DNA of 40,000 nt from Singulisphaera sp. GP187. Lineage in GTDB: Bacteria > Planctomycetota > Planctomycetia > Isosphaerales > Isosphaeraceae. The notes under the pieces are model-generated. The model saw only the letters and a program-made list of their open reading frames with translations. It had not been told where the DNA came from and ran no database searches. The stretch's first letter is position 1; each line of letters starts with the position of its first letter. The stretch spans positions 2,894,498-2,934,497 of the forward strand of contig NZ_FSRB01000002.1 of the NCBI RefSeq assembly GCF_900129635.1, in the 5' to 3' direction. The position numbers were made by a program, and so were the translations under genes. Shown one piece after another: positions 6,508 to 32,659 of this stretch.

Positions 6508-6558
6508 GAGAGAGTTCCTGAGGCTGAATCTTGTAAAGTTCTCTTCATGTTCAAGCAT

Positions 6559-11101: not shown

Positions 11102-11629
11102 TCAATGACGGTTGCGGTCGTTGACGGCCCCATTTCCACTGAGTTGGTCGATGATCCGTCCTGCCTCGGCCTTGGTCAGGTCGTAGGACGAGCAGCGTCG
11201 ACCGATGGCATCCTCGATGAAGAGTTCGAGCTTGGTGCCGAATAGTTTTTCCCGCTTGGCCAGGGTGGTGAGGTACTGGACCTGCTTGTTACTCGCCGGT
11301 TCCCCACGCTGGGGACTTCCGTTGCGGTGGCCGTTGGATGACGGGTTCTCGTCGGAGTCGTTCTGGTGGCGACCGTTGGACTTGCCGTTGTTCCCGTGGT
11401 CAGGCTGGGCGTCGGCATCCCGACGGGCGAAGGCGTCGATCTCCCGGGACTCGGAGATCTGGCGATCCAGGGCCTCTTCCGCCAGGTTGTAGAGCTCCTT
11501 GATCCGCTCGATCACGGACTCAGGGTCGTCGATAGTGGCATGAATCTCCCCCTCCAGGTTCAGCGTAAATCCTCGGGAGTTGTAGTCTTTGGACATCTTG
11601 CGACTGATCCCGACGTTGGCACGGAGCAT
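11102..11629 (-). CDS. Hypothetical protein with a low-complexity Asn/Gly/Ser-rich linker
   Basis: The protein-like sequence runs from 'MLRANVGISRK...' to the C-terminal 'KQVQYLTTLAKREKL...DLTKAEAGRIIDQL'. Start ambiguous (11629 or 11653). No function assignable. Confidence 0.55.
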   Translation of the reverse strand: MLRANVGISRKMSKDYNSRGFTLNLEGEIHATIDDPESVIERIKELYNLAEEALDRQISESREIDAFARRDADAQPDHGNNGKSNGRHQNDSDENPSSNGHRNGSPQRGEPASNKQVQYLTTLAKREKLFGTKLELFIEDAIGRRCSSYDLTKAEAGRIIDQLSGNGAVNDRNRH

Positions 11630-11884
11630 GGTAGGTCCTCTCTGGGTATCCATCTGAGCCAATCTCGGCGTCCTCCGTACCCACGAGGCGTGCAGCTTAC
11701 TCCGAGCCGACAGACCGGCGAAGTGGTCAACGCGAACCGGCTTCCCGTGATGGATCTTCAGGGATGCCTCGTTGTATGCCCTACCCGACGAGTGCAAGCT
11801 ATAAGGCCAAATTCTATATGGACCTTCCAAAAACGTTCTAAGCTACTAAAAGCAAAGTCTGGGCTGATACACCGGGGGACCGTC

Positions 11885-12238
11885 ATGTTCAGGTCGAAGC
11901 TGAAGGCGTTGAAGGTCAGCAAGGGTGTCTCGTGGGCTGAAATCTCTCAGAAGACGGGGATATCCCCGGGGACGTTGAGCCGTCTCTCCGCCGACAAGAG
12001 CTGGACGACCAACACGAGACACCTCGAGGCCCTCTGCCGGTATTTCCGCTGCAAGCTTGACGACCTACTGGAGTTTCACCCTAGGATCGGGAACGAGCCA
12101 TCCGTCCATATCGACGATCTCTATCCCTCCGGTCGCAGGAGGACCACCCGCCCCGTTGCCGCCCAAGTTGGGGGGACAAACGAGCGGACCCCACGGTCTA
12201 CGGCCCCTACTCGCCGACGTCGACGGCCGTCGTCCTGA
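11885..12238 (+). CDS. XRE/Cro-C1-type HTH transcriptional regulator
   Basis: 'KGVSWAEISQKTGISPGTLSRLSADK'. ATG at 11885. Divergent from the 11102..11629 gene across an AT-rich spacer (about 11800-11860). Confidence 0.85.
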   Translation: MFRSKLKALKVSKGVSWAEISQKTGISPGTLSRLSADKSWTTNTRHLEALCRYFRCKLDDLLEFHPRIGNEPSVHIDDLYPSGRRRTTRPVAAQVGGTNERTPRSTAPTRRRRRPSS

Positions 12239-15853: not shown

Positions 15854-16081
15854 CTACCCGAGCGACGAGAAGAGCACGCGGGTAACGCCAATGGGACTTC
15901 TCATGGGGAGCGAGATGGATCCGAACGTCGAGAGCTCGGATTCATTTCCGGACCCGGTCAAAGTTGTCTCGATGTTGAGCTTTTGAGATGAGGTGAATCC
16001 CGATGCGCTGATCCCACTCTGGACTCCGTTCAGGTTGTCGGGGTGGTTGGCATGGTGGGTCCGGAAGGTTTGGAGGGGCTG

Positions 16082-16945
16082 ATGATCGCGGATAACGAAG
16101 CCAATGTCGTCTATGTCGCCGACACTCTGGAGTGGAGATTCCCCTCTGTCTTTGAAGGGTTGAGAACCATTCTAGAAAAGCACGGCATCCCATTCCGGAC
16201 CATCCGGGGGACTCGTGACGTCTGGTGCCGTGATTACTTGCCGATTCAAGTAACCGAGGACCGCTTCGTCCAGTTCCGGTACTCCCCCGACTATCTGACT
16301 GGGAAATACAAACACCTTAGGGCCGACGGCGAGATCGGTCCGACGTTGCCGTTCATCAGAAACTGCGTCCGATCCGAGATCGTGCTGGATGGGGGGAATG
16401 TCGTCGGGCGGGGAGATCGGGCCATCGTGACGGACAAGGTTCTCTGCGAGAATCCTGGGCGACCGCGAAGCCAGCTCTTCCATGAATTAAAGGACGCCTT
16501 GAATCTGAGGGAGTTGATCGTCATCCCTCAGGAACCTCTTGACCCGATCGGCCACTCGGACGGGATGGTCCGATGGCTGGACGACCGAAGGGTCGTTGTG
16601 AACGACTACAGGGACATCGGCGAGCGGTTTCGGTCCAGGATGCTTCGATCCCTCGAACGCTTTCGACTCGAACCCATCGAGATTCCTTACTGCCCCCAAA
16701 ACGGCGGACGGGGGGGAATCTCGTCGGCCGTAGGCAACTGGGCGAACTTCCTCCACGTAGGTGGGCTGATCATCCTGCCCATCTTCGGATTGGAGGATGA
16801 CCAGACCGTCTTACAGAAGCTCCGGGAGCGATGCCCTCAAAATGCGATTGAGGGGGTAGTTTGTCGGGATTTGGCGGAGGAGGGAGGAGTCGTCAATTGC
16901 GTGACCTGGCAGGTGAACCGGGCTCCGGCGGGGCACGTGGGATAG
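16082..16945 (+). CDS. Agmatine deiminase/peptidyl-arginine deiminase (PAD_porph) family, guanidino-group-modifying enzyme fold
   Basis: 'VWCRDYLP', 'VLDGGNVV', 'DPIGHSDGMVRW', 'GNWANFLHVGGLIILPIFG' and the C-terminal catalytic Cys context 'EGGVVNCVTWQV'. ATG at 16082 preceded by GGAGGGG. Confidence 0.85.
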   Translation: MIADNEANVVYVADTLEWRFPSVFEGLRTILEKHGIPFRTIRGTRDVWCRDYLPIQVTEDRFVQFRYSPDYLTGKYKHLRADGEIGPTLPFIRNCVRSEIVLDGGNVVGRGDRAIVTDKVLCENPGRPRSQLFHELKDALNLRELIVIPQEPLDPIGHSDGMVRWLDDRRVVVNDYRDIGERFRSRMLRSLERFRLEPIEIPYCPQNGGRGGISSAVGNWANFLHVGGLIILPIFGLEDDQTVLQKLRERCPQNAIEGVVCRDLAEEGGVVNCVTWQVNRAPAGHVG

Positions 16946-17257: not shown

Positions 17258-17971
17258 ATGGGCCACAAAAGACCGGCCGTTGTCCTCCTCAGCGGCGGAC
17301 TGGACTCGACGACGACATTGGCTCTCGCCCATCGGGACGGTTTCGACCTCTTCGCCCTGAGCTTCCGTTACGGGCAGCGTCATCTTGCCGAGCTCGAGGC
17401 TGCCCGTCGGGTGGCTGAGAGGCTCGGCGTCGTGAAACACATCATCGCGGACATCGACCTGCGTCAGTTCGGAGGCTCCGCCCTGACCTCGGATCTCGAC
17501 GTTCCCAAGGGACGGACACCAAACGAGATGGGTGCTGGGATACCCGTCACGTATGTCCCGGCCAGGAACACGGTCTTCCTTTCCTTCGCCTTGGCCTGGG
17601 CCGAGGTCCTGGGATCGACCGACATCTTCATCGGGGTTAACGCTCTTGATTACAGCGGTTATCCCGACTGCCGTCCGGAATTCATCGCGGCTTTCGAGTC
17701 AATGGCGAACCTAGCCACGAAAATGGGCGTCGAGGGATCGCGGCCTCTCACCATCCACACCCCCCTGATCGCCCTGACCAAGGCCGAGATCATCAGGACG
17801 GGGATCGAGTTGGGTGTGGACTATGCGATGACGGTGACTTGTTACGATCCCTCTCCCGGCGGCGAAGCCTGTGGAGCCTGTGACGCGTGCCTCTTGCGTC
17901 GAAAGGGATTCGAGGAGAACGGTCTGAGCGACCCGGCTCGTTACGTTTCGGAAACCGCGGTGGTCCCATGA
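17258..17971 (+). CDS. queC: 7-cyano-7-deazaguanine (preQ0) synthase
   Basis: PP-loop '[12 protein letters not shown]' and C-terminal Zn-Cys cluster '[20 protein letters not shown]'. ATG at 17258 preceded by AGAGAGG. Confidence 0.95.
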
Positions 17972-18606
17972 GCTACGCAGTCAAGTCCATCTTCTACACG
18001 CTCCAAGGTGAGGGGGCGAACACCGGCCGACCGGCTGTCTTCTGCCGGTTTGCGGGGTGCAACCTCTGGTCAGGACGTGAGGAAGACCGGCTCACCGCGA
18101 AGTGCTCGTTCTGCGACACCGATTTCGTGGGGACGGACGGACCTGGGGGTGGGCGGTTCCACTCGGCCGGGGAGCTGGCACAGGCGGTCCTGGGTTACTG
18201 GCCTAGCCCGCCGGCCGTTGGGCGGCCATTCGTCGTCTGCACGGGCGGTGAACCGCTCTTGCAACTAGACGAAGCCCTCGTCGTGGCCCTGCACGACCAC
18301 GGTTTCGAGATCGCCGTCGAGACCAACGGCACCGTCCGACCGCCCCGCGGACTGGACTGGATCACGGTCAGCCCGAAAGCCGGGTCGGACTTGGTCATTC
18401 AGGCCGGTCAAGAGTTGAAGCTGGTTTTCCCTCAGGCAGGGCTACGGCCGGAGCCCTTCGAGGGGCTGGATTTCCGCCACTTCTTCCTCCAGCCCATGGA
18501 TGGGACGGAGGCCGAGGTTAACACCCGGCTCGCCGTGCGGTACTGCCTTGAGCACCCGTGTTGGAGGTTGAGCCTCCAGACCCACAAGATGCTGGGGATC
18601 CCCTGA
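17968..18606 (+). CDS. queE: 7-carboxy-7-deazaguanine synthase (radical SAM)
   Basis: '[27 protein letters not shown]...(14 aa between Cys)...CSFCDT' is the C-x14-C-x2-C cluster variant. The ATG at 17968 overlaps the queC stop (ATGA). Confidence 0.93.
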
Positions 18607-19448
18607 TGCTTGACCTGACGGGTGGTGTGAATGACACGCGGGGAACGGAGCCGCTGGTCGACGTCCAGAACCACGCCGACGATCGATGCGTCCCCATCGA
18701 CCAGGTCGGGGTGAGCAATCTGCGTTACCCGATCGTGGTGCTTGACCGTGCCAACCAGAAGCAACCGACCGTGGCGAGCCTGTCGATGTCGGTCAACCTG
18801 CCCCACCACTTCAAGGGGACGCACATGAGCCGCTTCGTCGAGGTGCTGAACGAGCACCGCGGTGAGGTGACCATGTTCACGCTTCCCGCGATCCTTGACG
18901 GGCTGAGGTCGCGGCTTCAAGCCGAGAGTGCCCGCATCGAGGTCCGGTTCCCTTACTTCCTGGAACGCGTGGCCCCGGTTAGTGGGGCTCGAGCCCTGAT
19001 GGGTTACGATTGCTCATTCATCGGCGAAGCGAGCGAGGCTGGGGAGGACTTTGTGCTGGGCGTACGGATACCCGTGACCAGCCTCTGCCCGTGCAGCAAG
19101 GCGATCAGCGATTACGGGGCCCACAACCAGCGGGGGCACGTGACGATCGAGGTGCGTGGGGGACAAAACGGTGGGACGGGTCCCGAACTCATCTGGATCG
19201 AGGAACTGGTCGAGGTAGCGGAGCGGTCCGCGTCAGCCCCGGTGTTCGCCCTGCTGAAGCGGGAGGACGAGCGGTTCGTGACGATGCAGGCCTACGACAA
19301 CCCGGCGTTCGTCGAGGACATCGTGCGGAATGCGGCCCTCATCCTCCGCGTGGATGAACGAATCACCTGGTTCCGGGTCCACGCGGAGAATCAGGAAAGC
19401 ATCCATAACCACGATGCGTTCGCCCAGGTCGAGTGGGCCCGAATCTGA
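18606..19448 (+). CDS. folE2: GTP cyclohydrolase FolE2/MptA type (GCYH-IB)
   Basis: 'GTHMSRF' and 'CPCSKAISDYGAHNQRG'. The ATG at 18606 overlaps the queE stop (TGATG). Confidence 0.9.
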   Translation: MLDLTGGVNDTRGTEPLVDVQNHADDRCVPIDQVGVSNLRYPIVVLDRANQKQPTVASLSMSVNLPHHFKGTHMSRFVEVLNEHRGEVTMFTLPAILDGLRSRLQAESARIEVRFPYFLERVAPVSGARALMGYDCSFIGEASEAGEDFVLGVRIPVTSLCPCSKAISDYGAHNQRGHVTIEVRGGQNGGTGPELIWIEELVEVAERSASAPVFALLKREDERFVTMQAYDNPAFVEDIVRNAALILRVDERITWFRVHAENQESIHNHDAFAQVEWARI

Positions 19449-19877: not shown

Positions 19878-21941
19878 ATGACGCGGATTCTAGTGGTCAC
19901 TTCCTGCACGGGCGAGAAGCTCGTCGAGACCAATGGTGCTCTGACCCTCGATGACTTCCAACAAGGCGGGGACCATCTTGCTCAACGTGAACGGAGCCTT
20001 TGCGAGTTCATGACCCCGGCTGAGACCCTGTACACCGGCCAGCAGCATGTCCGGCTCATGCGAGGAGTTCGGGCCTTTCGAGACAACTCCCGAGAAGTAA
20101 GTCGGAAGGATAACCTAGAACTTTGGGTCATCTCGGCCGGTTACGGCTTGATCCCTGGCGATCGCAAAATTGCCCCGTATGAATGCACGTTCCAGGGGAT
20201 GAGAACCAAGGCCCTTCGGTCGTGGGCAGATCAGCTCGGGGTGCCGGCGGCTATCCGAAAGCTCCTCGCACGGCCCTTCGACCTGGCCTTGATCAACCTG
20301 GGAGATGCCTATCTCGAGGCATGCCACTTGGGCCCGGACGTGACGCTCGGAGGGCCAACCATCTTGTTCTGCGGGACGACGGCGGCCAAACGCTTGCCCC
20401 GCCTGGATCAACTTCGCGTCGTGACGCTCTCCAACCCGCAAGCCAAGCGGTTCTCGTGCGGCTTGGTGGGGCTGAAGGGGGAGGTCTCGGGACGGATCCT
20501 TGAGCGGATGGCCCAGGAACCCGAGGCCATGCTGCGGCAATCCGTCGACCCAATGATCGACGTCCTCGACATTCTGGATGGTTCGGCGTCCCCTGTGAAG
20601 GCCACAAGGGCGAAGGCTAGGGTCAATCCGGTCGTCGATCGGGTGATCACAATCCCCGTTCCGTGGCGGCAGAAGCCACACCGTGATCGGCTCCGCTACT
20701 TCATCCCCGAGTGGGACGACCTGGTTGATCCCGAGTACGATTTCGAAACCGATACCCATTCGGGAGGCTCTGGCGACTGGTCGAATCAGGTCTACGCACA
20801 CCAGATGTATCCCGAGCCCAACTATGACGGGATCCTCGTCTCCAAGGTCGTCGCGGAGAAGAGTAAGAAGAAGAAAGAGCGGATCAACGCCCTCGGCGTC
20901 CATCGGTTTCTCAGAGTCCCGCCCGATTTCCCGGTCATGGGGGACTGCGGGGCTTTCGGGTACATCCAGCAGGAACATCCGCCTTACTCGACCGAGGAGA
21001 TTCTCGATTACTATACCCGCCTTGGCTTCGATTATGGGGTCTCCGTCGACCACCTCATCGTGACTGCGACGACAGCTCAGAAGCAGCATCGTTACGAGTT
21101 GACGATCCATAACGCTGAGGAGTTTCTCAAGGAGCACCGGAAACGACGATTGCCGTGGGAGCCGATCGGTGCCGTTCAGGGCTGGGACGCCAAGAGCTAT
21201 ACCGAAGCAGCCCGCAAGGTCGTCAAGATGGGGTATAATTACATCGCACTAGGCGGTTTGGTCAGGACATCCACATCCGACATCCTGACGATCCTCGAAG
21301 ACGTCCATCACGTCGTGCCGGATGGCGTACAGGTCCACCTCTTCGGGCTCGCCCGGCTAAACGCAATATCCAATTTTGCCAGGCTGGGCGTGAATTCGGT
21401 CGATAGTGCCTCCTACCTCCGCCAGGCATGGATGCGGATCGGCCAGAGCTATCTTTCAGAGCACGGTGCATATGCCGCTCTGAGGATACCCGAGGCTGGC
21501 AAAAGCTTCCGTGCAAAGCAAATGACGGGTCACGCCGAGCTCAGTGAAACCCGCATCCAGAGCCTCGAGCAATCCGCGATTGGGAGCGTCCGAGCCCTTG
21601 CCCGGGAGAAATGCTCGGTCGAGACCTGCCTGGATCATCTGCTCGAATACGATCGCTTCGTCACGAGCGACCGGGTCAATATGACAGATTTGTATCGCCG
21701 AACGCTCACGGACCGCCCCTGGGAACGGTGCCCCTGCAACATCTGTCGCCGATGGGGCGTCGAGGTTATCATCTTCCGGGGCAACAACCGCAACCGACGG
21801 CGGGGCTTCCACAACACCTACGTGTTTTACGATCTGCTTCAGAAAGCCCTGCGAGGGGACTCGGTTGATCTCCAAGACACGACGGCGGAAGAGGCGGAGG
21901 AACTTCCTCTCTTTGCGTCGATCCCGGGGCAAGCAATTTGA
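19878..21941 (+). CDS. Fusion protein: uncharacterised N-terminal domain (about 1-230) + TGT-family (DpdA-like) transglycosylase with Zn-binding subdomain
   Basis: N-terminus: 'ILVVTSCTGEK...LYTGQQHVRL...WVISAGYGLIPGDRKIAPYECTF'. TGT part: 'GDCGAFGYI', 'IALGGLVR', 'VHLFGLARL', 'VNSVDSASY', and Zn motif 'CPCNIC...(21 aa)...H'. ATG at 19878 preceded by GAGGAA. Confidence 0.85.
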   Translation: MTRILVVTSCTGEKLVETNGALTLDDFQQGGDHLAQRERSLCEFMTPAETLYTGQQHVRLMRGVRAFRDNSREVSRKDNLELWVISAGYGLIPGDRKIAPYECTFQGMRTKALRSWADQLGVPAAIRKLLARPFDLALINLGDAYLEACHLGPDVTLGGPTILFCGTTAAKRLPRLDQLRVVTLSNPQAKRFSCGLVGLKGEVSGRILERMAQEPEAMLRQSVDPMIDVLDILDGSASPVKATRAKARVNPVVDRVITIPVPWRQKPHRDRLRYFIPEWDDLVDPEYDFETDTHSGGSGDWSNQVYAHQMYPEPNYDGILVSKVVAEKSKKKKERINALGVHRFLRVPPDFPVMGDCGAFGYIQQEHPPYSTEEILDYYTRLGFDYGVSVDHLIVTATTAQKQHRYELTIHNAEEFLKEHRKRRLPWEPIGAVQGWDAKSYTEAARKVVKMGYNYIALGGLVRTSTSDILTILEDVHHVVPDGVQVHLFGLARLNAISNFARLGVNSVDSASYLRQAWMRIGQSYLSEHGAYAALRIPEAGKSFRAKQMTGHAELSETRIQSLEQSAIGSVRALAREKCSVETCLDHLLEYDRFVTSDRVNMTDLYRRTLTDRPWERCPCNICRRWGVEVIIFRGNNRNRRRGFHNTYVFYDLLQKALRGDSVDLQDTTAEEAEELPLFASIPGQAI

Positions 21942-23158
21942 GATTCGACCTTCACCTTCGAGCCGGCATCAAGCAACAGATCGACGACCTCGCGGAAGAG
22001 ATGTGTCGGTGGGAGGAAACACCCCGCATCGCCGAGGCCGAGGGCCGGAAGATCCGGAATGCCGTAAGTTCGTTTTCGCACTGTACGCAGGTAGGCGACC
22101 TCAGGATCGGCGGCGTCGACGGCTCGGGCGACTATCCGTCGGTCGTCTACGCCGACTCGTTCATCTACGTCACGGTTGCACACGGTACGATTTACGAGTC
22201 CGAATTAACTTGTGGATTGCGAGAGTGCTCTCCTGGCTTCGACCCTGTCATTGACTTCACCTGGCTCCCGGGAGCGGAACTTGCTTGGAGATCAGCCCTG
22301 GACACTGCGTTCGAACGGCTCGCAGGTCGTTCGATTGACGATGTCCTTCAGGACTCGGATTATAGAAAGCTCAAGTCGGATGCGACCGGGCGGGCCCAGC
22401 CGGTCAAGGTTCTGAAGGAGGCTTTGGTCCGGCCTCATGCGTCCGACGCCGGCAACATCGGCATCCAGCTCCGATCGCTGGGCGAGCTGGGGGCGGCCTT
22501 GCGGTTGATCAAGTGCCCGCACCGGCTCGACTACGTCTTGATGGATGGGACGCTCTCGCTACCCTTCGTGACGCGGACCGATCTTAGCCTCTTCCAGGAG
22601 CATCTCAAGCGGCTATGCTGCGTCGAGGCCCGCAGCCGTGGTGTGGGCTTCTTCGCCCTGAGCAAGTCGCACGGGCTCCCCTCGATGGAGCTGATCGAAG
22701 AATTGGCCAGGGAGCACCAGGGGCTAGATCGCGGGAAACCCGCCGAGCACTGGTTCCTCCGGATTCCCACAATTGAACTCGACGGTTGGGAATCGCAACT
22801 CGTTGAAGGTCGCAGGATTCCGCCTCAGGGGGCGATTTCTTATCTGGTCCGGTTCCATCGAACGACGCCAGTACTCCGCCTCGACATGGATCGCGATTAC
22901 TGGATTCGATGCGTGCGTGGAGAAGTGGGTGAGCAGACCCTTGCAAACGAGCAAAGGATCTTCGAGAATCTCGACTATTCCGGCCACGATCAGCGGTGTT
23001 TCGGGTATCCCTACCCTATCAAGGCCGGACATGATCGGGCCTCTTTGACTAAAGCAGAGCGTGTCGCTCTCCGCAAGCAGATCATCGACGCGGCGGTCCG
23101 GGCTGGGATGAAGCGGTCCCTGTTCCGCGACGCTTCTCAGGCGACGGGACACGAATAG
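21938..23158 (+). CDS. NurA-like nuclease domain protein
   Basis: 'IGGVDGSGDY', 'YVLMDGTLSLPF', 'FFALSKSHG', 'YLVRFHRTTPVLRLDM' match my memory of the NurA motif order. The TTG start at 21938 overlaps the upstream stop (TTTGA). Confidence 0.65.
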   Translation: MRFDLHLRAGIKQQIDDLAEEMCRWEETPRIAEAEGRKIRNAVSSFSHCTQVGDLRIGGVDGSGDYPSVVYADSFIYVTVAHGTIYESELTCGLRECSPGFDPVIDFTWLPGAELAWRSALDTAFERLAGRSIDDVLQDSDYRKLKSDATGRAQPVKVLKEALVRPHASDAGNIGIQLRSLGELGAALRLIKCPHRLDYVLMDGTLSLPFVTRTDLSLFQEHLKRLCCVEARSRGVGFFALSKSHGLPSMELIEELAREHQGLDRGKPAEHWFLRIPTIELDGWESQLVEGRRIPPQGAISYLVRFHRTTPVLRLDMDRDYWIRCVRGEVGEQTLANEQRIFENLDYSGHDQRCFGYPYPIKAGHDRASLTKAERVALRKQIIDAAVRAGMKRSLFRDASQATGHE

Positions 23159-23166
23159 GCGGTCCG

Positions 23167-24960
23167 ATGGCAACCCTGGATGAGCTCATCGGATGTCTGG
23201 GCGTGCCGTTCGGCGTCTTGGCCGAGAGTAACACGAATCAATTGACTGTCATCGCCCGCGACACGGACGTTGCCGTGGGCGACCTGTTCCTCCTTCCGTG
23301 CCGCCGCGGCCCTGACCGAATTTACATCTTCCGGACCAACCAGTATGCGAACGTGCTCAATCGCACGATCGAGCTGGACGACGTGGCCCGGAACAAGTTG
23401 ACGATGCCGGACTCGTACCTATCGGAGGATCTCGCCGACGAGAAGCTGATCGAGCTCGTCGGAATGGTGATGGGCTACGCGGAGTGGAACCCGGGGGAGG
23501 ACGACTGGGATTTTCACCGTCCCCGCCGGCTTCCCCAGCACCTCTCGGACGTCTACCTGGTCGATCACGCGAACCCGCAGATCGGTCAGGTCATCCGAAC
23601 GCTACTCCGCAGCCAGCTCGGCGAGTCCGGGATCTACGTAGGCGACCTCCTCGCGGGCGAGCGACCCCTGGCTGGCGTGCCGGTCTACTTGCCCCCGTTC
23701 GCCTTTTCCCACCACCTCGGCATCTTCGGTCGGACCGGCAGCGGCAAGAGCAACCTCATGATGGTCCTGCTCCGCTCGGTGCTGGAGCATAACCGAGGGG
23801 TGGCCTTCGGCACCACCCCCGGCCCTCGCGTCTCGATACTCGCCATCGACCCGCACGACGAGTTCCGCACCTGGCATGCGGCGATCGGCGGTGCCGATGG
23901 GATCCGAGGGATCGTCGAAGGGTATGGTCAGGGCGAGAGGTCCGAGCTAATCGAGCCGTTCTATTACCTGACAGCGAGGGATGCTGGCGGGGCCCTCGAA
24001 CGGCGAGTGCGGCTCTCGCGGGCCGACCTGGTCCCCGACGACCTGGCCAGCGTGATGGAGTTCAGCGAGCAGCAGGTTGCCTTTGCGAACCAGCACTACG
24101 CGACCTTCGGCGAACAGTGGGTGGGCCGGCTGCTGCTAGGCGACCACGGAGAGGCCGCCGGGGGGCATGGTGGGGAGGTGGGGGCGGCCTTCCTGCCGGG
24201 CACGGTGTCCGCCGTCCAGCGGAGGCTCGCTTTCCTCCGTCATGGGCACACGCGGGTCTTCACCCGGTTCGACCCGGAAGCCGGCCTGCCCTACCTCTCC
24301 GACTTGCCAGACATTGTCTGTGCCCTGGAGCGGGGCCGCGTGATCGTCGTCGACACGACTCTGATGTCGGAGATGGAACAGTTCCTGATGACGACGGTCG
24401 TCGCCAGGGTCGTGTTTGGGCTCCGGAGAGCAATCCGATCGGCTGAGACGGTCGAAGACCTGCGGCGAGAGATTCGGCACGCCTTCGACAACGATCCGGA
24501 AGAAGGCCATCTGGGCCAGCAGAGCTTGGCCGACCGGCTGGTCGAGCAACTGGACGGAGGCGATCTGCCGTACTTGGATGGGGCGACCGTCAGGTCTTCG
24601 GAGCACCTCCCGTTCATTAACGTGGTGATCGAGGAGGCCCCCAGCGTCCTGAACCCAGATCGGCTCAGATTTGGAAGCATCTTCCGTGACATCAGCCGGC
24701 AGGGCCGGAAGTTCGGTATCGGGCTGACGGTCGTGAGCCAGCAGGTCAGCGTGATCGACCATGGGGTTCTGACGCAGCTCAACACGGAGCTTACCATGTC
24801 TCTCGGCAACGACCTCGAACGCCGGGAGGCCACACGCAATGCTTCTTCCGACCTGTCCGGGTTCGAGCGAGAGTTGCAGGTGATAGGCAAAGGCCAGGTC
24901 GTAGTTACCGGATCGTACCGGGACATGCCGCTTCCGATCCAGATTCCCAGATTCGAGTGA
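23167..24960 (+). CDS. HerA/FtsK-like (DUF87) ATPase with N-terminal HAS-barrel-like region
   Basis: Walker A 'GIFGRTGSGKSN', Walker B 'INVVIEEAPSVL', 'SRQGRKFGIGLTVVSQQVSVIDHGVLTQLNTELTMSLGN'. Confidence 0.85.
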   Translation: MATLDELIGCLGVPFGVLAESNTNQLTVIARDTDVAVGDLFLLPCRRGPDRIYIFRTNQYANVLNRTIELDDVARNKLTMPDSYLSEDLADEKLIELVGMVMGYAEWNPGEDDWDFHRPRRLPQHLSDVYLVDHANPQIGQVIRTLLRSQLGESGIYVGDLLAGERPLAGVPVYLPPFAFSHHLGIFGRTGSGKSNLMMVLLRSVLEHNRGVAFGTTPGPRVSILAIDPHDEFRTWHAAIGGADGIRGIVEGYGQGERSELIEPFYYLTARDAGGALERRVRLSRADLVPDDLASVMEFSEQQVAFANQHYATFGEQWVGRLLLGDHGEAAGGHGGEVGAAFLPGTVSAVQRRLAFLRHGHTRVFTRFDPEAGLPYLSDLPDIVCALERGRVIVVDTTLMSEMEQFLMTTVVARVVFGLRRAIRSAETVEDLRREIRHAFDNDPEEGHLGQQSLADRLVEQLDGGDLPYLDGATVRSSEHLPFINVVIEEAPSVLNPDRLRFGSIFRDISRQGRKFGIGLTVVSQQVSVIDHGVLTQLNTELTMSLGNDLERREATRNASSDLSGFERELQVIGKGQVVVTGSYRDMPLPIQIPRFE

Positions 24961-25027: not shown

Positions 25028-26860
25028 ATGGCTGGCGAAGCTCAAGGCAAGTTCTACGAGGCACTTACGTACGTTCTGATTGCTGATTCGAAGATTCTCG
25101 GCGGGTCTCAATTGTATTGGGACAAGCCAGTTGCCGGACTGTCAAAGCGGCCTGATTTGGTCATCGGGGCCTCTCTGGATCATATCGATGCAGTTATCAT
25201 GGTGACGCATAGCGGCTCAGCCAAAGAGTCAGAGAAGAAATATTGGAGGAATGCATGTGAATATGTTGAATCAAAGTTGTTTCTTGGAGGCAATCCATTT
25301 GTTCTTAACCTGGTTTACAATGCGGCAATGAAGCCCAACATTAAGGTGGTTTCGAAGTACTCGTTCGACGCGTCTATTATCGTCGAGGACGAAGCATTTG
25401 GCCCAACGCTTCTGACTTGGGCGGGGACTGCAATGGATAGCATTCCTCATGATGGCGACACCATTCAGTACGTTAGGGATCGCTTGCAATGCGATCTTGG
25501 TGCAAATCCCAAGCTGGCTACTGCGGTATCCGATCTTCGGCAGATGCTTATCGATGCGTTGCGAAACGCGAAGTCACTGAAGGCTCCGCTGATTAGTACA
25601 AGAACGCGAAAGGCCTTATCCGCAGATAAGGAGGCCCGCAAGACCGCATTGCGACGAGGCATCGCGAAAGCGATTTTGGTCGGAGATATCGACGCGATTT
25701 GGCAGCCTGCCAATACACAGAGCACATTTGCTGCACCGGATTACTGCAAAACGTTAAATTTTCACAAACCCTCGATCCTTGGAGACGTCGTTTGCGATCA
25801 GGACCTCATGTGGCTTCGGGAGAATCTGAGCCGAGAGTCCGTAAAGGAGATTATAAGCAATTGCCCAATCAAACAGATGCAGGTCTGGGTCGAACCTCTC
25901 AAAAACTTGGCGATCCTCGACCAATCGCAAGCATATGCTGCACAGCACTGGGATGAGTTGACAACTCCCGAGGGTCTCTATCATCATTTGGTAAAAACAA
26001 GTTCACGTGAATACATCAAATCTCATTTCGAGAACCGTTTCATTCCCCCAGGGTGGCTCTTCGACTATCTGCGAGAATTGTACAAGTCACATAAGAAGAG
26101 AAAGACGGCTTGGGGGTGGGCCGCCTTGGTGAAGGATTTGAAATTGGTCGATAAAGACTCCGCCTACCGCAGCTTTGTCTCTGAAGTTACTGGCATTCCA
26201 ATTGAGGAGCTGAGCAATGATTGGAGTGGATTTCGCACCGTCACTTACGCATTGCCAGAGTGGATCATGGGGGATTCCAGGGCCAATTTTAAACTGAGGC
26301 CGACAGATCTGCCTCGGCTAGCTTACACATTCGCACCCAGGCTGGCCTCGGTACCCAAAGCGGCCCTGGAGGAACTTAAGCAGAGGATTCTGGGCTTCTA
26401 CATCGCAAACTACCTGGAGGCAAAGCTGATTCAATACAGGAACTTCGATCCATTACGCATTCTGATCGAGCTCGAGTTGTCTAAAGCCGGCCTGCCGTAC
26501 GAGTTCGTTGAGCGGTTCCCTTCAGCATTTGTTGAGAAGGCCACGGCAGCAGGTGAACGGTTTAACGTTCGAACCGGAGCAACTTCTGTATTGCGTTGCA
26601 ACGACATGCTGATTTGTTGGAGGAGCGTGACCGGTCTCGGCAGAGACCACAAACAGAAAGAGTTGATCGCGAGAGCATTCGCTATCGGGCACACGTGGGG
26701 TGACGGTGGGTTCCGAGCGAGATCGAAGGTCAAGCGGTTGATTCTTGTCTTGGATGGTGATGTCGATGAACCAGACATTAAGGCTCTCTCTCGAGGGGGA
26801 TGGGATGAAATCTTCTACCCCAACGAGCTGGACTCCCTCCCAATATCGATCAACATGTGA
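25028..26860 (+). CDS. Orphan 610-aa protein in a low-GC segment, function unknown
   Basis: Long uninterrupted ORF with ATG start. The first 60 nt are 50% GC by hand count, against 63% for the first 60 nt of the herA-like gene, and A/T-ending codons are frequent. N-terminus 'KRPDLVIG...DAVIMVTHSGSAKESEKK' is only weakly nuclease-like. Confidence 0.75.
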   Translation: MAGEAQGKFYEALTYVLIADSKILGGSQLYWDKPVAGLSKRPDLVIGASLDHIDAVIMVTHSGSAKESEKKYWRNACEYVESKLFLGGNPFVLNLVYNAAMKPNIKVVSKYSFDASIIVEDEAFGPTLLTWAGTAMDSIPHDGDTIQYVRDRLQCDLGANPKLATAVSDLRQMLIDALRNAKSLKAPLISTRTRKALSADKEARKTALRRGIAKAILVGDIDAIWQPANTQSTFAAPDYCKTLNFHKPSILGDVVCDQDLMWLRENLSRESVKEIISNCPIKQMQVWVEPLKNLAILDQSQAYAAQHWDELTTPEGLYHHLVKTSSREYIKSHFENRFIPPGWLFDYLRELYKSHKKRKTAWGWAALVKDLKLVDKDSAYRSFVSEVTGIPIEELSNDWSGFRTVTYALPEWIMGDSRANFKLRPTDLPRLAYTFAPRLASVPKAALEELKQRILGFYIANYLEAKLIQYRNFDPLRILIELELSKAGLPYEFVERFPSAFVEKATAAGERFNVRTGATSVLRCNDMLICWRSVTGLGRDHKQKELIARAFAIGHTWGDGGFRARSKVKRLILVLDGDVDEPDIKALSRGGWDEIFYPNELDSLPISINM

Positions 26861-26993
26861 TGCAATCAAATGAGCCGCAATTTAATTATTATAACGTTTT
26901 AAACGTATAATTACATTTGGTGTGGTCGGCTAAGTCTGGGGTTGAACTAAAGAAGCGGCGGAGTTTGTAGGAACTACCGTCCGGGGGCGACTC

Positions 26994-29318
26994 ATGATCT
27001 CGTCGGCGTTGTTTCTGCAAGCCCTCAAGAACGGTACGGGTCGTACCCCGAACGCCGGCCAGAAGCAGGCCGTCGAGGCCCCCGGCGGAGCCGCCCTCTT
27101 CGTAGTCGCCGGGCCCGGAACCGGCAAGACCGCCACACTGACAATGCGGATGCTCAAGTTGATCTTCGTGGACGGGGTCGCCCCGCGAGGGATCCTTGCG
27201 ACCACGTTCACCCGGAAGGCCGCCCAGGAGATCCGATCGAGATTGCTGACCTGGGGGTATGCGGTCCAGGAGGAACTCGTCTCGAACGGCAAACTCAGCA
27301 AGATGGACCGGCTTTGGCTCGAGCGGGTCGACATCAACCAGGTGCGGACGGGCACGATCGACGGCGTCTGCGAGGAGCTTCTTCGCGATTTCCGCGATCC
27401 CGGCACCGACCCGCCGATCCTCGCTGACAAATTCGTCTCGGACACACTGCTCCTACGCCAAGGCCTCTTCCAGTCGGACCGCTACAAGGACGACGACCTC
27501 GACACCTTCCTCTGCAATGTCCGAGGGACGGGCCGCTTCGGCTGGAACATCGGGGCCAAGAACAGCCTCGTCCGCACGATCTGGGACCGACGCCACCACG
27601 ATCAGATGGACTGGGTGAAGTTCGCGGGTTCCGGAACCAGCCAGGAAGAGAAGCAAGCGATCACGCTGCTGGACTCCGCCCTGACCGATTACGCCAAGGA
27701 ACTCGGCGATCGACTCATGGTCGACTTCGCCCAGCTGGAGCAGACCGTGCTCGCTCGCCTGGCGGCGGGCGGCCTCACGGAGTTCGCCGAGGAGTTGAAG
27801 GTCGTCCTCGTGGACGAATACCAGGACACCAACCTGCTCCAGGAGCGACTGTATTTCCAACTGGCCCAGCGTTGCGGCGGTGCCCTGACCGTGGTGGGGG
27901 ATGACGATCAGAGCCTCTACCGGTTCCGCGGTGCGACGGTGGACCTCTTCAGCAACTTCGAGAAGCGGTTCACCTCGACGCTCGGTACGAAGCCGACGAA
28001 AATCTTCCTCAACGAGAATTACCGTTCCTCATCGGTCATCATCGATTTTGTGAACGATTACGCGAGCCTCGATGCCGGCTACCAGGGCGTTCGAGTGGCC
28101 GGGAAGCCCCGACTCGTGAACCCGAAACCGCGTGACGCCGAGATGCCCGTGCTCGGGATGTTCCGGAATTCTATTGAGGACCTCGCGGGCGATCTCGCAC
28201 GTTTCATCCACGCTGTTACTCGCGGAGACGGCTTCGAGGTGAGAGGGCAATGGATCAGGGTTGATCGGGAGGCCTCGGGCGACGTCGGGGACTGTGCCCT
28301 CCTCTGCAGTTCCCCCCAGGAATACGGCAGCGGGACCCCCCTCAAGGAGAGGCTGCCGCTCCTCCTGAGGCGGGAGCTGGGGCAGCTGAACCCGCCCATC
28401 CCCGTGTTCAACCCGCGGGGGCAAGACCTCGCCGTGATTCCTTCAGTCGAGCGGCTCGGGGGGTTGTTGCTCGAGTGCCTCGATCCGGGAGGCCCAATCC
28501 AGTCTGTGATGCGAGGCCTCTCGAACGAGATCCAGGCGACTTTCAACACGTGGCGAGCCAGGACGCTCGCCTGGCTTGACGGGGACAGTAAGCTAGAGCC
28601 GCTCCGTGATTACGCGGTGAACTGGGCCAGCCGAGACGCGGATCGCCCTGGATATGCTTGGCCCAAGAGCACGCCCTGCATCGAGCTGCTCTACGCCCTC
28701 ATCCACTGGATGCCCGAGCTTCACGACGACCCCGAAGGGCAGGTCTACTTGGAGGTCTTCACGAGGCAGCTCGGGGCGGCGGAACAGGTCAGCGGATTCA
28801 AGGCTCGAGTCGTCACCGATCCCGATAAGCCGGATCTAACGCGGACTTCCGTCGGTCATCTACTCCTGTACTTCCTCGCCCCGATCGCCTCCGGTGCGGC
28901 CGGGGTCGACGAGGAGTTGATCGAGAGCTTCCCTCGTGACCGGCTGAACATGCTGTCGATCCACCAGAGCAAGGGACTCGAGTTCCCGTTAGTCATCGTG
29001 GACGTCGGTTCCGACTTCAAGGGTAGATACCCCGCCCAGGCTTTCAAGCGGTTCCCCCGGAATCCCGGCCCGCCGCACAATCTCGAGGACTTGCTGCGGC
29101 CTCACAGCCCCCTGGCGACCCTGAGGCGGAGCGGTCTCGATCGTGCCTTCGACGACCTCTATCGCCAGTATTTTGTGGCATTCAGCCGACCACAGGACGT
29201 GTTGCTCCTGGTCGGCCTGAACGCCACGCGACCCGGTGGTAACGTCGAGAATGTTGCCACCGGACGGGATAGGACCGGCGTGAATCGCTGGTCGCCCCCG
29301 CCGTTTCTGGAGATCTGA
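26994..29318 (+). CDS. UvrD/Rep/PcrA-family SF1 helicase
   Basis: 'AGPGTGKT', 'ATTFTRKAA', 'VDEYQDTN', 'VGDDDQSLYRFRGA', 'NYRSS', 'SIHQSKGLEFPLV'. Confidence 0.95.
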   Translation: MISSALFLQALKNGTGRTPNAGQKQAVEAPGGAALFVVAGPGTGKTATLTMRMLKLIFVDGVAPRGILATTFTRKAAQEIRSRLLTWGYAVQEELVSNGKLSKMDRLWLERVDINQVRTGTIDGVCEELLRDFRDPGTDPPILADKFVSDTLLLRQGLFQSDRYKDDDLDTFLCNVRGTGRFGWNIGAKNSLVRTIWDRRHHDQMDWVKFAGSGTSQEEKQAITLLDSALTDYAKELGDRLMVDFAQLEQTVLARLAAGGLTEFAEELKVVLVDEYQDTNLLQERLYFQLAQRCGGALTVVGDDDQSLYRFRGATVDLFSNFEKRFTSTLGTKPTKIFLNENYRSSSVIIDFVNDYASLDAGYQGVRVAGKPRLVNPKPRDAEMPVLGMFRNSIEDLAGDLARFIHAVTRGDGFEVRGQWIRVDREASGDVGDCALLCSSPQEYGSGTPLKERLPLLLRRELGQLNPPIPVFNPRGQDLAVIPSVERLGGLLLECLDPGGPIQSVMRGLSNEIQATFNTWRARTLAWLDGDSKLEPLRDYAVNWASRDADRPGYAWPKSTPCIELLYALIHWMPELHDDPEGQVYLEVFTRQLGAAEQVSGFKARVVTDPDKPDLTRTSVGHLLLYFLAPIASGAAGVDEELIESFPRDRLNMLSIHQSKGLEFPLVIVDVGSDFKGRYPAQAFKRFPRNPGPPHNLEDLLRPHSPLATLRRSGLDRAFDDLYRQYFVAFSRPQDVLLLVGLNATRPGGNVENVATGRDRTGVNRWSPPPFLEI

Positions 29319-29321
29319 TCG

Positions 29322-30149
29322 ATGCCGCTCTCCGTCCGCCCGCCGATCAACACGCTCCCCTCGTACAGCCTGACCGGCGACCTACTCGGCTTCCTCCGAT
29401 GCGGCCTCCAGTACCGCTACTCCCGGGTGGGCAATCTCCCCCCCTCACACCCCGTGCAGCTCTGGTTCGGCCAGTTCATCCACGCCGTGCTCGAAGAGTC
29501 ATATCGCCAGGTCAAGGAGGCCAAGTGCGAGATGCCGCCCTGGCCGCAAGACAAGCTCGACGGGATCATGGACCGGATCGACCGGCGGTTGGCTGCACGG
29601 AACATCCGCTGCTGGGATGACGCGTCGGAACACCTGGGGCGGCGGCGGGCTACGGCCGCCGTGAACGAGCTGGGTCCGCTCCTCTTCCCGCTGATCAACC
29701 AGGCGGAGGTCCGCGTCCGGGGGGCGAGGAAGCTGCCGGCCGGGCTGGAGGGAGTTGTCGCCAGGGACATCGAGCGTTACGAGATGCTCGGCGTCATCGA
29801 CGTCGTGACCCAGGTCGAACTCTTCAACCCCAAGTTCCGGGGCAACAAGCTCCTGGAGCTGGTCGTCGAGGAGCTCCCCAGCACGCCGCCTCAGGAATTC
29901 GAGGTGATCGTCGACTATAAGGGTATGAAGCGGCCCGATCAGTCGGAGGCAGGGGCCGGACTCTGGGAGATCTACGAGTGGCAGATCCACACCTATGCCC
30001 ACTTGCGGTCGCTGCTCACGACGAAGCCGATCATCGCCGGAGTGCTGGTGTATCTGAATGAATTGGTGCCAACGAAGACCGACTTCTTCGCCCTACGAAG
30101 AGCTCTTAAGCGTACTGTCACACAAACCCTGTTGGAATCCGTCACCTAA
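29322..30149 (+). pseudogene. Cas4/RecB-like PD-(D/E)XK nuclease, 5' portion, interrupted by IS630-family insertion after nt 30108
   Basis: 'FLRCGLQYRY', 'GQFIHAVLEE', 'GVIDVVTQVE', 'EVIVDYKGMK', 'WQIHTYAHL' (QxxxY). Native sequence ends at 30108; the last 13 codons plus the stop are IS-derived. Confidence 0.85.
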
Positions 30150-31305
30150 TTCTTGTGGGTATGGCTTCGGGGCCCTTCGAGATAGGAGATTCGAATGAAC
30201 CGGTCAGAACGACGGTTTCGTGCTTGCAAATGGCTGCTGATCCGCCTTTTGGTCGCCTGTTGATCTGGGTCGTTGGTCGTGTCCAGGACATTCTGTTGGA
30301 TGTCGCTGAAGATCGTTTCACACGGATTGTCGTCCGGGCTTCGCTTTGGCAGGCTGGTCCATTGCAGCCCCAATCGTCGCATCATCGCACGGGTCGCTCG
30401 GGCCTTGATCGGGTGGGCCGGATCCCGATCCAGGGCCAACCGCAGGAGGCGTCCGGGATACCATCGCCGGATTCGCCGCAGGAATTGGCAGACGTACTTC
30501 GCCCCCTTGCCCGGGTAGAAGGCCCAATGGACACGGCCGTGGTTCACGTCATAGAGCAAAAACAGGTAGAACCGACCGCGGATCTTTTGGTTGCGCTGCA
30601 AGACCAGGCGCTTGGCCGTGGTGTAACATCGTCCGCCGTACGCCTTGACGGTGATCGGCTGGACGTCGAAGAACGCCAAGACGGCCCGACGGGGTCGGTG
30701 TTGCCACCACACTCTCAACCGATGCAAAATCACACGCCGATTCGGGTCGGTGCTGAAGAGTTTGCGGCGGATGCGGCGAAATGTATACCCCCCTTTTTGA
30801 GCACCCGACGAAGGTGCTCACGGCTGATCGACTTGACGATTTTCTCTCGGATCAGGACGTCACGCAACTTGGCCAGGGTCCAGCGGCCGAACGGCAACCC
30901 GAGGGTCGTGGGCGATTGGCCGGCCAGGCGCCAAACGGCCGCGATTTGCTCTTGGGACAGGTGTGGAGGAGCGCCGACGGTGCGCGGTCGGCTCAGAGAG
31001 GACAGGCCGTGCTGCGCGAAGTCGCGGAGATCGGCATATACGGTGTTGACATGGACATGGAGCAACCGGGCGATCGCGGTGGCGGAAAGATCGGCGGAGC
31101 GAAGCAAGAGCACCTCCGCGCGACGACGCTGCCAAGGTCGTAGAGGCTTCTCAAGCCATTGATGGACCCGGCGGAGTTCGGCCGGGGTCGGTTTCCGTGC
31201 TGTCAGAGGACGTGACATGGTGGAACCTCCGCTCTGGGTGGACCACCAACCATTCTAACAAAACAGGCGACAAGAATTCCGACAGGGATTCTGTGACGCT
31301 ACGCT
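30109..31305 (-). mobile_element. IS630/Tc1-mariner-family insertion sequence (1197 bp) with TA target duplication
   Basis: TA at 30107-30108 and 31306-31307. Terminal IRs AGCGTACTGTCACACAAACCCTGTTGGAAT versus reverse complement AGCGTAGCGTCACAGAATCCCTGTCGGAAT (25/30 identical). Contains an HTH + DDE_3-type transposase. Confidence 0.88.
30146..31218 (-). CDS. IS630-family transposase in two overlapping frames (HTH part 30730..31218; DDE part 30146..about 30790), joined by a -1 shift
   Basis: N-terminus 'ELRRVHQWLE...LSATAIARLLHVHVNTVYADL'. Catalytic part '...LAFFDVQPITV...LALDRDPAHP...SPDDNPCETIFSDIQ'. The second frame stays open upstream through 'FRRIRRKLFSTDPNRRV' to the CAAAAAGGGGGG run. 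Confidence 0.85.
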
Positions 31306-31738: not shown

Positions 31739-32659
31739 TCAGCCATCCAGGGACTTTTCGATTGACTGAGTGGTGTACATCAGCCTGTGAGTTGAGAAGG
31801 GTAGTGCCGTCTGGCACGCCGCGGCCAGGTTGCAGAGTGCCAGATGGAGACGATCCGCCGGCGAAGGATCGGCGATTGCGATGTCCGGGCGTCCCCAGAG
31901 CCTGCCATCGACGGCGAGCTTGACGTAGGAGCTCGAATCGACCGAGTCGACCCCGTGCCGGAAGAGCTCGGCGACGATATCCGGCTTGCCCAAGCCGAAC
32001 ACGTGCAAGGGCCGGTCACCGATCTCGCCGCGGACCGCATCGACGATCTCCAGGACCGCCTTCAAGTCTCGGGCCCGTGGGACCAGGCCTCCGATTGCCA
32101 CTCCGTCGAATGGGCTCCCGGCGTACTCCCTGGCACAGGTCCGGGCCTTCTTCGCGTCCCAGGCCTGCACGCAGGCGTACAACCTCAGATCTGACCGCCG
32201 TCGGTTCGCGAGGGCCCAATGGGCGTTCGCGATCGTCAGGGATTGGCGGACTTTCGCGTCGGCCGGCTTCGTCCCCGGCGGGATCGGGAAGTCGAGCGTG
32301 AAGGCGACGTCCGCGATCTGCTCCTGCAACTCCAGGGCATCCAGCGGGGTCAAGAGTTGGCTCGTCCCATCGACCATTCGTTCAATGCACCCGAGCCCAT
32401 TCCTCTTCCGAACCTGGGAATCCTTGAACAGGGCGGAGAAGCCGCCCGAATCGACGAGGAGTGGCAAGTTCGGCCGATCGTTCAGGTCCCGGTTCTTGGC
32501 GTAGTGATAGCTGACCATCATCGCCGGGGCCAGGCGAGGGAGATACGGCCTGACGAGATCGTCCAGGGGGTACTCCTCCCCGAACGTGGTGACGGGGACG
32601 TAGGCGGGGAAGCGGATGATGCCGCTTCGGGTCTTCAAATTTCGTGCGGTCGGTTCCAC
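31739..32659 (-). CDS. Stand-alone TGT-family transglycosylase (DpdA-like)
   Basis: 'IIRFPAYVPVTTFG', canonical 'LLVDSGGFSALF', 'GVAIGGLVPR', 'LHVFGLGKP', 'GVDSVDSSSY'. No CxCxxC Zn motif. The GTG start at 32659 overlaps the 3' end of the upstream helicase by 25 nt. Confidence 0.85.
   Translation of the reverse strand: MEPTARNLKTRSGIIRFPAYVPVTTFGEEYPLDDLVRPYLPRLAPAMMVSYHYAKNRDLNDRPNLPLLVDSGGFSALFKDSQVRKRNGLGCIERMVDGTSQLLTPLDALELQEQIADVAFTLDFPIPPGTKPADAKVRQSLTIANAHWALANRRRSDLRLYACVQAWDAKKARTCAREYAGSPFDGVAIGGLVPRARDLKAVLEIVDAVRGEIGDRPLHVFGLGKPDIVAELFRHGVDSVDSSSYVKLAVDGRLWGRPDIAIADPSPADRLHLALCNLAAACQTALPFSTHRLMYTTQSIEKSLDG

Follow-up and report, generated by a model that had tools for sequence, protein, structure and literature searches.

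Which reaction, and on which nucleic acid, does an enzyme of the tRNA-guanine transglycosylase (TGT) superfamily perform when it carries a second domain at its N-terminus? This question is raised by a gene of the planctomycete Singulisphaera sp. GP187, which lies within a stretch of 40,000 nucleotides (nt) of contig NZ_FSRB01000002.1 (positions 2,894,498 to 2,934,497, assembly GCF_900129635.1), referred to here as the window. A first-pass annotation of the window had described the product as a TGT-family enzyme with a variant active-site motif, fused to an uncharacterised N-terminal domain. Our analysis identifies the C-terminal domain by sequence as a bacterial DpdA, predicted to exchange guanine for 7-cyano-7-deazaguanine (preQ0) in DNA, and points to a short form of DpdC at the N-terminus, which is predicted to convert the preQ0 in DNA to the amide 7-amido-7-deazaguanine (ADG). 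We therefore favor a bifunctional DNA-modifying enzyme that arose by fusion of two adjacent dpd genes, DpdC and DpdA, and consider this reading of the whole protein probable. To our knowledge, no bacterial restriction-modification system other than Dpd uses a base swap to mark DNA.

The fusion is real and is not an artefact of assembly or of a frameshift, because its homologues, of which the best 120 clusters at 90% identity were listed, are all full length (664-710 amino acids (aa), 59-100% identity), and because the precomputed annotation of 117 of these 120 clusters contains both PF01702 and PF21818. The same 120 listed homologues underlie the conservation figures given below. A GAGGA-like site lies 8 nt 5' of the ATG of the open reading frame (ORF), and the protein is 100% identical to the NCBI entry 'tRNA-guanine family transglycosylase [Singulisphaera sp. 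GP187]'. Pfam places PF01702 at residues 337-625 and PF21818 (DUF6884, a domain of unknown function, DUF) at residues 66-130, which bears out the proposed union of a TGT-family enzyme with a DUF6884 domain, and the strings previously quoted from the protein are all present in it (Table 1).

For the C-terminal domain, the assignment to DpdA is carried by family models and by a solved structure. The NCBIfam DpdA equivalog NF041059, whose cut-off is 200, gives 444.7 bits and is covered over positions 1-405 of 406, and the PADLOC DpdA model gives 406 bits on the fusion protein. The models for tRNA enzymes stay far below their cut-offs, with 27.7 bits against 306.75 for Tgt (TIGR00430) and 51.7 bits against 350 for TgtA (TIGR00432). 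The best solved relative is DpdA of Salmonella Montevideo (PDB 7UI4, E 1e-80, residues 267-659), in which Asp95 acts as the general acid/base and Asp256 as the nucleophile, with Ala at either position abolishing activity, and in which Phe99 stacks on the base and Asp130 reads it (PMC10164549). The equivalent residues of the fusion (D356, D509, F360 and D391), as well as its zinc ligands, are invariant in all 120 listed homologues. The zinc site seen in the first pass is thus retained, and the loss of catalytic aspartates that would have made the domain an inactive scaffold is not observed. What does not stand is the variant character of the DCGAF motif. MGDCGAF is letter-identical between the fusion and 7UI4 in an alignment whose numbering allows for a 20-residue tag, and nearly every intact DpdA among 45 sequences from the fetched loci reads DCGAF or DCGGF, with or without DpdB. 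DSGGF is the form of the motif in tRNA TGTs; DCGAF is a signature of the DpdA family and should not be read as a defect. The consequence for annotation is that these fusion proteins are to be regarded as DNA-modifying and not tRNA-modifying enzymes, and RefSeq already names some members of the family DpdA. A separate difference from the Salmonella enzyme, Gln434 at the position of His181, was considered as a marker of independence from the ATPase DpdB and was rejected, as DpdB-associated DpdAs of Agrobacterium and Solirubrobacterales also carry Gln.

For the N-terminal domain, the relevant family is DUF6884, whose proteins are characterized by CxxxK and LSAxxG motifs and by a YaaA-like DNA-binding fold (PMC11701544), and DpdC is a DUF6884 protein (preprint 10.1101/2025.02.24.639861), which older papers place in the related DUF328/YaaA family. 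The resemblance to DUF6884 suggested in the first pass is confirmed by PF21818, which scores above its gathering threshold, albeit marginally (30.5 bits against 30, E 4.4e-7); two close homologues score 45.3 and 42.6 bits. The PADLOC DpdC model PDLC02818 matches residues 1-106 (E 1e-12). When a profile of 84 N-terminal-domain sequences, comprising that of the window and 83 mostly standalone homologues, was compared by hhalign with canonical DpdCs, it matched DpdC of Enterobacter pPOL9A with 96.6% probability over 156 columns and DpdC of an Agrobacterium vitis plasmid with 95.8% probability over 187 columns. The Enterobacter reference itself scores 470 bits on PADLOC DpdC, and the Agrobacterium vitis reference adjoins dpdB-dpdA-dpdB and is homologous to it over the full length. 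The hhalign register sets TSCTGEK over TACTMRK and SAGYGLIP...PYECTF over SAGLGLVP...SYNLTV of canonical DpdC. An AlphaFold2 (AF2) model of residues 1-270, with a predicted local distance difference test score (pLDDT) of 92, has YaaA (5CAJ) as its sole significant fold match in the PDB, and its viral structure matches are DUF6884/YaaA proteins, consistent with the YaaA-like alpha/beta 'cantaloupe' fold predicted for the domain.

Conservation within the domain centers on the two family motifs. C10 and K14 are kept in 117 of 117 non-gapped sequences among the 120 listed fusion homologues, S86, A87, G88 and G90 in 120 of 120, and Y89 in 118 of 120; all five residues of SAGYG are also invariant across the 84 N-terminal-domain sequences. 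Residue 85 is Ile in the fusion, where the family usually has Leu. Conservation is low (0.30-0.35) at residues 201-240 and climbs again toward the DpdA domain. More widely, an HMMER search of 1.84 billion representatives returned 777 relatives of the N-terminal domain, 179 of them at E up to 1e-30, and about 22 of the best 150 relatives are long multidomain proteins of at least 500 aa, most of them fusion-like. The label 'uncharacterised' holds for the domain insofar as Pfam calls it a DUF, but not for the Dpd member of the family, since DpdC has a reconstituted activity: it turns dPreQ0-DNA into dADG-DNA independently of DpdA and DpdB (PMC10164549). Salmonella DpdC is the sole member for which the activity is known, and by homology it would extend to the present domain. 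Of the two roles considered in the first pass, that of a further enzyme acting on the base once it is inserted fits a DpdC homologue best, and that of a DNA- or partner-binding module less so.

The distribution of the domain provides a rationale for the fusion. A scan with a single peptide pattern over one genome per species, annotated by phmmer against reference proteins, yielded 43 loci, which is a lower bound. Nineteen loci are fused and stem from Chloroflexota, Verrucomicrobiota, Acidobacteriota, Bacteroidota, Gammaproteobacteria, Cyanobacteria, Planctomycetota and Acetobacteraceae. The fusion is also found on Nostoc and Paenibacillus plasmids, and it reaches at least eight phyla. Another 19 loci are split, with a standalone domain of about 220-230 aa immediately 5' of dpdA. 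The order QueC-QueE-FolE2-[DpdC-like]-DpdA-DpdB is found in 17 of these 19, all from Solirubrobacterales or other Actinomycetota, with a standalone orthologue roughly 34-50% identical to the N-terminal domain of the fusion, and by gene content and order these 17 are the classical dpdC-dpdA-dpdB module. Because the standalone orthologues sit in this order, the fusion appears to join two consecutive steps of a pathway by the merging of two adjacent dpd genes. The Solirubrobacterales operons (L024, L026-L031, L035, L036, L038, L040, L044, L046) share with the fusion the short DpdC subfamily (at roughly 36-50% identity to its N-terminal domain), the QueC-QueE-FolE2 genes upstream and a DpdA that follows immediately downstream, and differ in that the genes are separate and DpdB is present. 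Split operons of this type probably resemble the ancestral state of the fusion.

The fused and split loci also differ in DpdB, which is reported in the literature in 92% of genomes with dpdA. Within the species-representative set, a DpdB gene lies within 10 kb of just one of 19 fused loci (L023), as compared with 17 of 19 split loci. In the 40-kb window, neither PADLOC, run on the main ORFs, nor phmmer, run with three DpdB sequences in all six frames, detected DpdB. This correlation between fusion and loss of DpdB suggests that a tethered DNA-binding domain, or a neighboring ATPase or helicase, takes over the role of DpdB. The restriction genes of a second group of genomes are the canonical ones: DpdE, DpdF and DpdG follow the fusion in Amazonocrinis (764, 737 and 80 bits) and also in Ca. 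Uabimicrobium. In other loci, those of Paenibacillus pART37, L023 and L034, it is DpdJ and DpdK that accompany the fusion. From these canonical genes beside it in relatives, the fusion is, as judged by genomic context, a genuine Dpd modification module that is combined with different restriction modules.

Several loci of the scan depart from these two arrangements. The split locus of Shewanella sp. 10N.286.51.B8 (L005, 2290-3905) has a standalone DpdC-like gene (233 aa) that overlaps a compact DpdA-type TGT of 305 aa with WDCGAW and CECKAC motifs, and a NurA-HerA-X-UvrD block comes next. At L020 (1344-2702) and L021 (8558-9376) a DpdC-like domain is present and DpdA was not detected in the fetched flanks; the L020 domain is part of an open frame of 453 aa, downstream of which lie QueC and QueE. 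In a Candidatus Competibacter metagenome-assembled genome (L004, 3704-9990), the region 5' of the fusion encodes QueF, QueC and a QueD of double length, along with two radical SAM proteins, of which one occupies the place of QueE, a thymidylate-synthase-like protein, a transporter of the Vut_1 (YhhQ) type and MazG. Such a set is a hint that the DNA mark of some members derives from preQ1 or is tailored in another way.

From the homology, domain boundaries, conservation of catalytic residues and synteny described above, we infer a scheme in which one polypeptide carries out both modification steps. The DpdA domain, with Asp509 as the nucleophile and Asp356 as the general acid/base, would replace guanine in double-stranded DNA with preQ0, which would be supplied by the products of the FolE2, QueE and QueC genes immediately 5'. 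The DpdC-type domain would then hydrate the nitrile of the inserted dPreQ0 to the amide, giving dADG, and the tether between the domains would place both steps at the same site. In QueF and in nitrilases, a Cys attacks the nitrile, and by analogy Cys10 of the CxxxK motif may do so here, assisted by Lys14, Glu13 and Glu102. The fusion would thereby be the half of a Dpd-type island of restriction and modification that marks self, and its mark would shield the DNA of the host against the nuclease and translocase encoded next to it. The restriction half would consist here not of DpdD-K but of a NurA-HerA nuclease-translocase pair, a UvrD helicase, a PD-(D/E)XK nuclease and two further proteins.

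A number of observations weigh against this bifunctional reading. The domain is a short form of DpdC that lacks the C-terminal extension of about 90 residues: the alignments end at residues 202-220 of DpdCs of 283-308 residues, the full canonical architecture (about 300-320 aa) is not present, and in the fusion the extension is replaced by the linker and DpdA. The PADLOC DpdC models match only the first 105-112 residues or so, the Pfam DUF6884 score is barely above its gathering threshold, and a scan of the N-terminal domain alone against NCBIfam gave no family match at E up to 10. Where DUF6884 proteins lie outside Dpd loci, as YfjM does, their chemistry is probably a different one (PMC11701544). 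The Salmonella DpdA needs the DpdB ATPase in vitro (PMC10164549), yet none was found in the 40-kb window, and the preQ0 gene set is incomplete, as QueD (PTPS) was not detected by phmmer anywhere in the 40-kb window. Finally, the enzymatic activities ascribed to the clade derive by homology from the reconstituted Salmonella enzymes.

The most serious alternative is that the N-terminal domain mainly replaces DpdB, acting as a tethered YaaA-like DNA-binding or base-flipping module that delivers DpdA to DNA without an ATPase, in which case the mark may stay dPreQ0. This would account for the coincidence of fusion with the absence of DpdB noted above, and DUF6884/YaaA proteins have a positively charged DNA-binding cleft with predicted nucleotide flipping (PMC11701544). 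However, the CxxxK and SAGYG motifs that the domain has in common with active DpdC are invariant in the fusion clade, which argues for retained catalysis, and in Solirubrobacterales the same short DpdC form coexists with DpdB, so that it replaces nothing there. We consider this alternative unlikely, while noting that a DpdB-like role and a catalytic one are not mutually exclusive. The domain might instead catalyze another reaction on the inserted 7-deazaguanine, or act on another DNA lesion or base, and produce a mark other than dADG. Such a role would be compatible with a divergent short subfamily that NCBIfam does not match and that PADLOC DpdC matches in part only, with the functional heterogeneity of DUF6884 (PMC11701544), and with the extra tailoring genes of related loci (in one of them QueF, a thymidylate-synthase-like gene and a radical SAM gene) and the PAD_porph-type hydrolase of the window. 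Orthology to DpdC is nevertheless indicated by the homology seen between profiles and by the standalone orthologues, which keep the order dpdC-dpdA-dpdB, and the motif residues are the same as in DpdC; we regard a different reaction as improbable. That the protein is a tRNA-modifying TGT with an accessory domain, as its RefSeq name implies, would follow from that database name and from membership in the PF01702 superfamily, but it is scarcely credible given the low Tgt and TgtA scores, a DNA-guanine transglycosylase (7UI4) as closest structure, and a context of DNA helicases and nucleases here and of canonical Dpd restriction genes in relatives. The bifunctional DpdC-DpdA enzyme accordingly remains our preferred reading.

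The genes on either side of the fusion are consistent with a role in DNA modification and restriction (Table 1). In many loci, the gene that comes directly after a QueC/QueE/FolE2 trio is the fusion or, where the genes are split, dpdC. Just 5' of the trio in the window is a gene for a PAD_porph/agmatine-deiminase-type protein (16043-16945, + strand, 98.6 bits), a guanidino-group-modifying hydrolase fold, which was not found beside the fusion in any other locus; in principle, an amidine hydrolase of this type could act on a 7-deazaguanine side chain, for example in converting archaeosine to ADG. On the 3' side, we propose that the adjoining NurA-like gene is translationally coupled to the fusion. 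The NurA assignment needed structure prediction, as a profile search of the PDB with the protein gave nothing significant. Its AF2 model (pLDDT 90) matches in Foldseek the NurA of S. solfataricus (2YGK, E 3e-9), chain G of TdpAB (8WFD, E 2e-8) and HerA-NurA complexes. In structure the protein thus resembles TdpB, a component of TdpAB, which senses phosphorothioate. The gene directly follows the fusion in 12 loci, and among its 120 listed relatives nearly all are unnamed or called 'hypothetical protein', with a Pfam NurA hit in a minority. The HerA gene is conserved beside the NurA-like gene across loci. Further downstream, the gene order of 25028..31162 is shared with Chthoniobacteraceae, Shewanella and metagenome loci. 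For the two unassigned proteins of this segment, of 610 and 335 aa, there was no sequence match in Pfam, NCBIfam, PADLOC or the PDB; at least six other loci also encode the 610-aa protein. Chthoniobacteraceae, Competibacter, Terriglobia, Spirosoma, Anaerolineaceae and others have this block immediately 3' of the fusion, and Shewanella has it after the split version. DpdD, DpdJ and DpdK were not found in the window by phmmer, and for DpdE and DpdF there were only weak hits of the sort that any helicase gives, so that a canonical dpdD-K set is not present. The wider surroundings look like a mobile defense island: genes at 3088-4716, 5473-6558, 10181-11023, 11366-12238, 12296-14788 and 38232-39332 encode an rve-type integrase, a WYL/WCX regulator, a Cas4-like PD-(D/E)XK nuclease, a helix-turn-helix (HTH) protein, an 830-aa helicase and an ATP-dependent DNA ligase.

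The window also encodes a second TGT paralogue, referred to here as TGT2. As stated in the first pass, it reads DSGGF (residues 70-74), and this motif, the D of LDF, a GG and VDSVDS align with D102, D156, G229-G230 and D280 of Z. mobilis TGT. It scores 46.8 bits on NF041059, under the cut-off, and is not a DpdA by NCBIfam; a CxCxxC...H zinc site was not found in its sequence. By alignment, TGT2 looks catalytically competent and coupled to helicases. The arrangement of helicase, TGT2 and helicase recurs on the Nostoc plasmid pNOS3756_2, whose TGT2 scores 403 bits against the window copy, and phage relatives, at 25-27% identity, were not informative. TGT2 is co-conserved with the fusion in L002, L003, L006 and L008, and L048 holds only a fragment of the N-terminal domain. 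Taken as a pair, TGT2 and the HHH/SWIM helicase that it overlaps accompany the fusion across several phyla and on a Nostoc plasmid. Because the paralogues are co-conserved and TGT2 lacks the zinc site and is operonic with helicases, it is plausible that the two have different jobs, in agreement with the earlier suggestion of distinct substrates or steps. TGT2 might serve as an additional inserter with a different sequence context or strand as its target, or else as a partner subunit or as a reader.

Like the DpdA/B/C system of Salmonella Montevideo (7UI4; PMC10164549), the locus has the MGDCGAF motif, the three aligned Asp residues of DpdA, the zinc site, CxxxK with SAGxG, and linked preQ0 genes; unlike that system, it joins DpdC and DpdA in one polypeptide without the DpdC extension, has no DpdB nearby, carries Gln434 for His181 and replaces dpdD-K. 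DUF6884 (PF21818)/YaaA (DUF328, PDB 5CAJ) proteins such as B. subtilis YfjM resemble the N-terminal domain in fold, in CxxxK and LSAxxG, and in a predicted DNA-binding cleft, but are standalone and not linked to 7-deazaguanine genes. Phage DpdA1-4 (PMC10516641) are likewise DNA transglycosylases that work without DpdB, whereas the present domain is of the bacterial type, with the insertions specific to DpdA retained. The NurA-HerA pairing has a parallel in the Tdp phosphorothioate system, where TdpAB (cryo-EM structure 8WFD; An et al. 2025 via PMC12914056) acts together with one modification enzyme. TdpABC also combines one modification enzyme with a HerA-type ATPase and a NurA-fold nuclease as the restriction part, and 8WFD chain G is the second-best match of the gene downstream of the fusion. 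The Tdp mark, however, is a backbone phosphorothioate and not a 7-deazaguanine, and there is no sequence-level homology to TdpC.

Table 1. Positions of the fusion, its domains and motifs, and the neighboring genes in the window (nucleotides of the window; residues of the encoded protein)
Feature	Position	Strand	Details
QueC	17258-17971	+	Pfam 252 bits
QueE-like radical SAM	17887-18606	+	Radical_SAM 25.8 bits, under the 29.5-bit cut-off
FolE2	18558-19448	+	GCHY-1 312 bits
DpdC-DpdA fusion ORF	19878..21941	+	687 aa, uninterrupted
DpdC-like domain (DUF6884, predicted YaaA-like fold)	19878..20582	+	residues 1-235
CxxxK motif, C10-T-G-E-K14	19905..19919	+	putative active site of the DpdC domain; aligns with ACTMRK of Agrobacterium DpdC
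SAGYG motif, S86-G90 (LSAxxG signature)	20133..20147	+	aligns with SAGLGL of both canonical DpdCs
String ILVVTSCTGEK			residues 4-14
String LYTGQQHVRL			residues 51-60
String WVISAGYGLIPGDRKIAPYECTF			residues 83-105
Inter-domain linker	20583..20690	+	residues 236-271; pLDDT 61-77; match to the DpdA hidden Markov model begins at residue 272
DpdA DNA-guanine transglycosylase domain	20691..21845	+	residues 272-656, NCBIfam NF041059
DCGAF motif	20943..20957	+	D356-F360; D356 = Salmonella Asp95, F360 = Phe99
D391	21048..21050	+	= Asp130 of 7UI4, base recognition
D509	21402..21404	+	= Asp256 of 7UI4, covalent nucleophile; SVDSAS aligns with SIDSTT
Zinc site C618, C620, C623, H645	21729..21812	+	CPCNIC (618-623)...H aligns with CECNIC...H of 7UI4
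NurA-fold nuclease	21938..23158	+	406 aa; TTG start overlaps the TGA stop of the fusion (TTGA)
HerA/FtsK-type ATPase	23167..24960	+	597 aa; Pfam DUF87 57 bits, PADLOC HerA models
Conserved 610-aa protein	25028-26860	+	no family match
UvrD helicase	26994-29318	+	family hits
PD-(D/E)XK nuclease	29322-30149	+	family hits
335-aa protein	30155-31162	+	no family match
TGT2	31739..32659	-	306 aa; TGT superfamily TIGR00449 77.6 bits
Hel308-like helicase with HHH and SWIM domains	32635-35151	-	overlaps TGT2 by 25 nt
Second Hel308-like helicase	35557-38148	+	family hits

Both halves of the protein belong to known families, its architecture is already visible in databases, and its DCGAF motif is ordinary; the useful leads are the DpdB-less fusion clade and the alternative restriction module. 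In a literature search that lay outside the founding Dpd papers, where an earlier description is possible, neither the DpdC-DpdA fusion nor its association with the loss of DpdB nor the NurA-HerA/UvrD context was found described. The Dpd system poses two puzzles, the dependence of DpdA on the DpdB ATPase and the mode of action of DpdC, for which we know of no solved structure and no established mechanism. The fusion clade, set beside its split, DpdB-containing sister operons, offers a natural comparison for the function of DpdB, and the invariant Cys10, Lys14 and SAGYG are candidate catalytic residues for DpdC. We tentatively suggest that the fusions form a DpdB-independent clade of bacterial DpdA, in which the tethered DpdC replaces the ATP-driven step, TGT2 possibly helps, and the mark is read, in this locus, by a hitherto undescribed NurA-HerA/UvrD/PD-(D/E)XK module. 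If true, this would be a new subtype of 7-deazaguanine-based immunity, with a restriction module analogous to TdpAB. The pairing of one modification enzyme with DpdE/F/G, with DpdJ/K or with NurA-HerA and UvrD points to the 7-deazaguanine mark as a modular self-label, in the manner of phosphorothioation and methylation.

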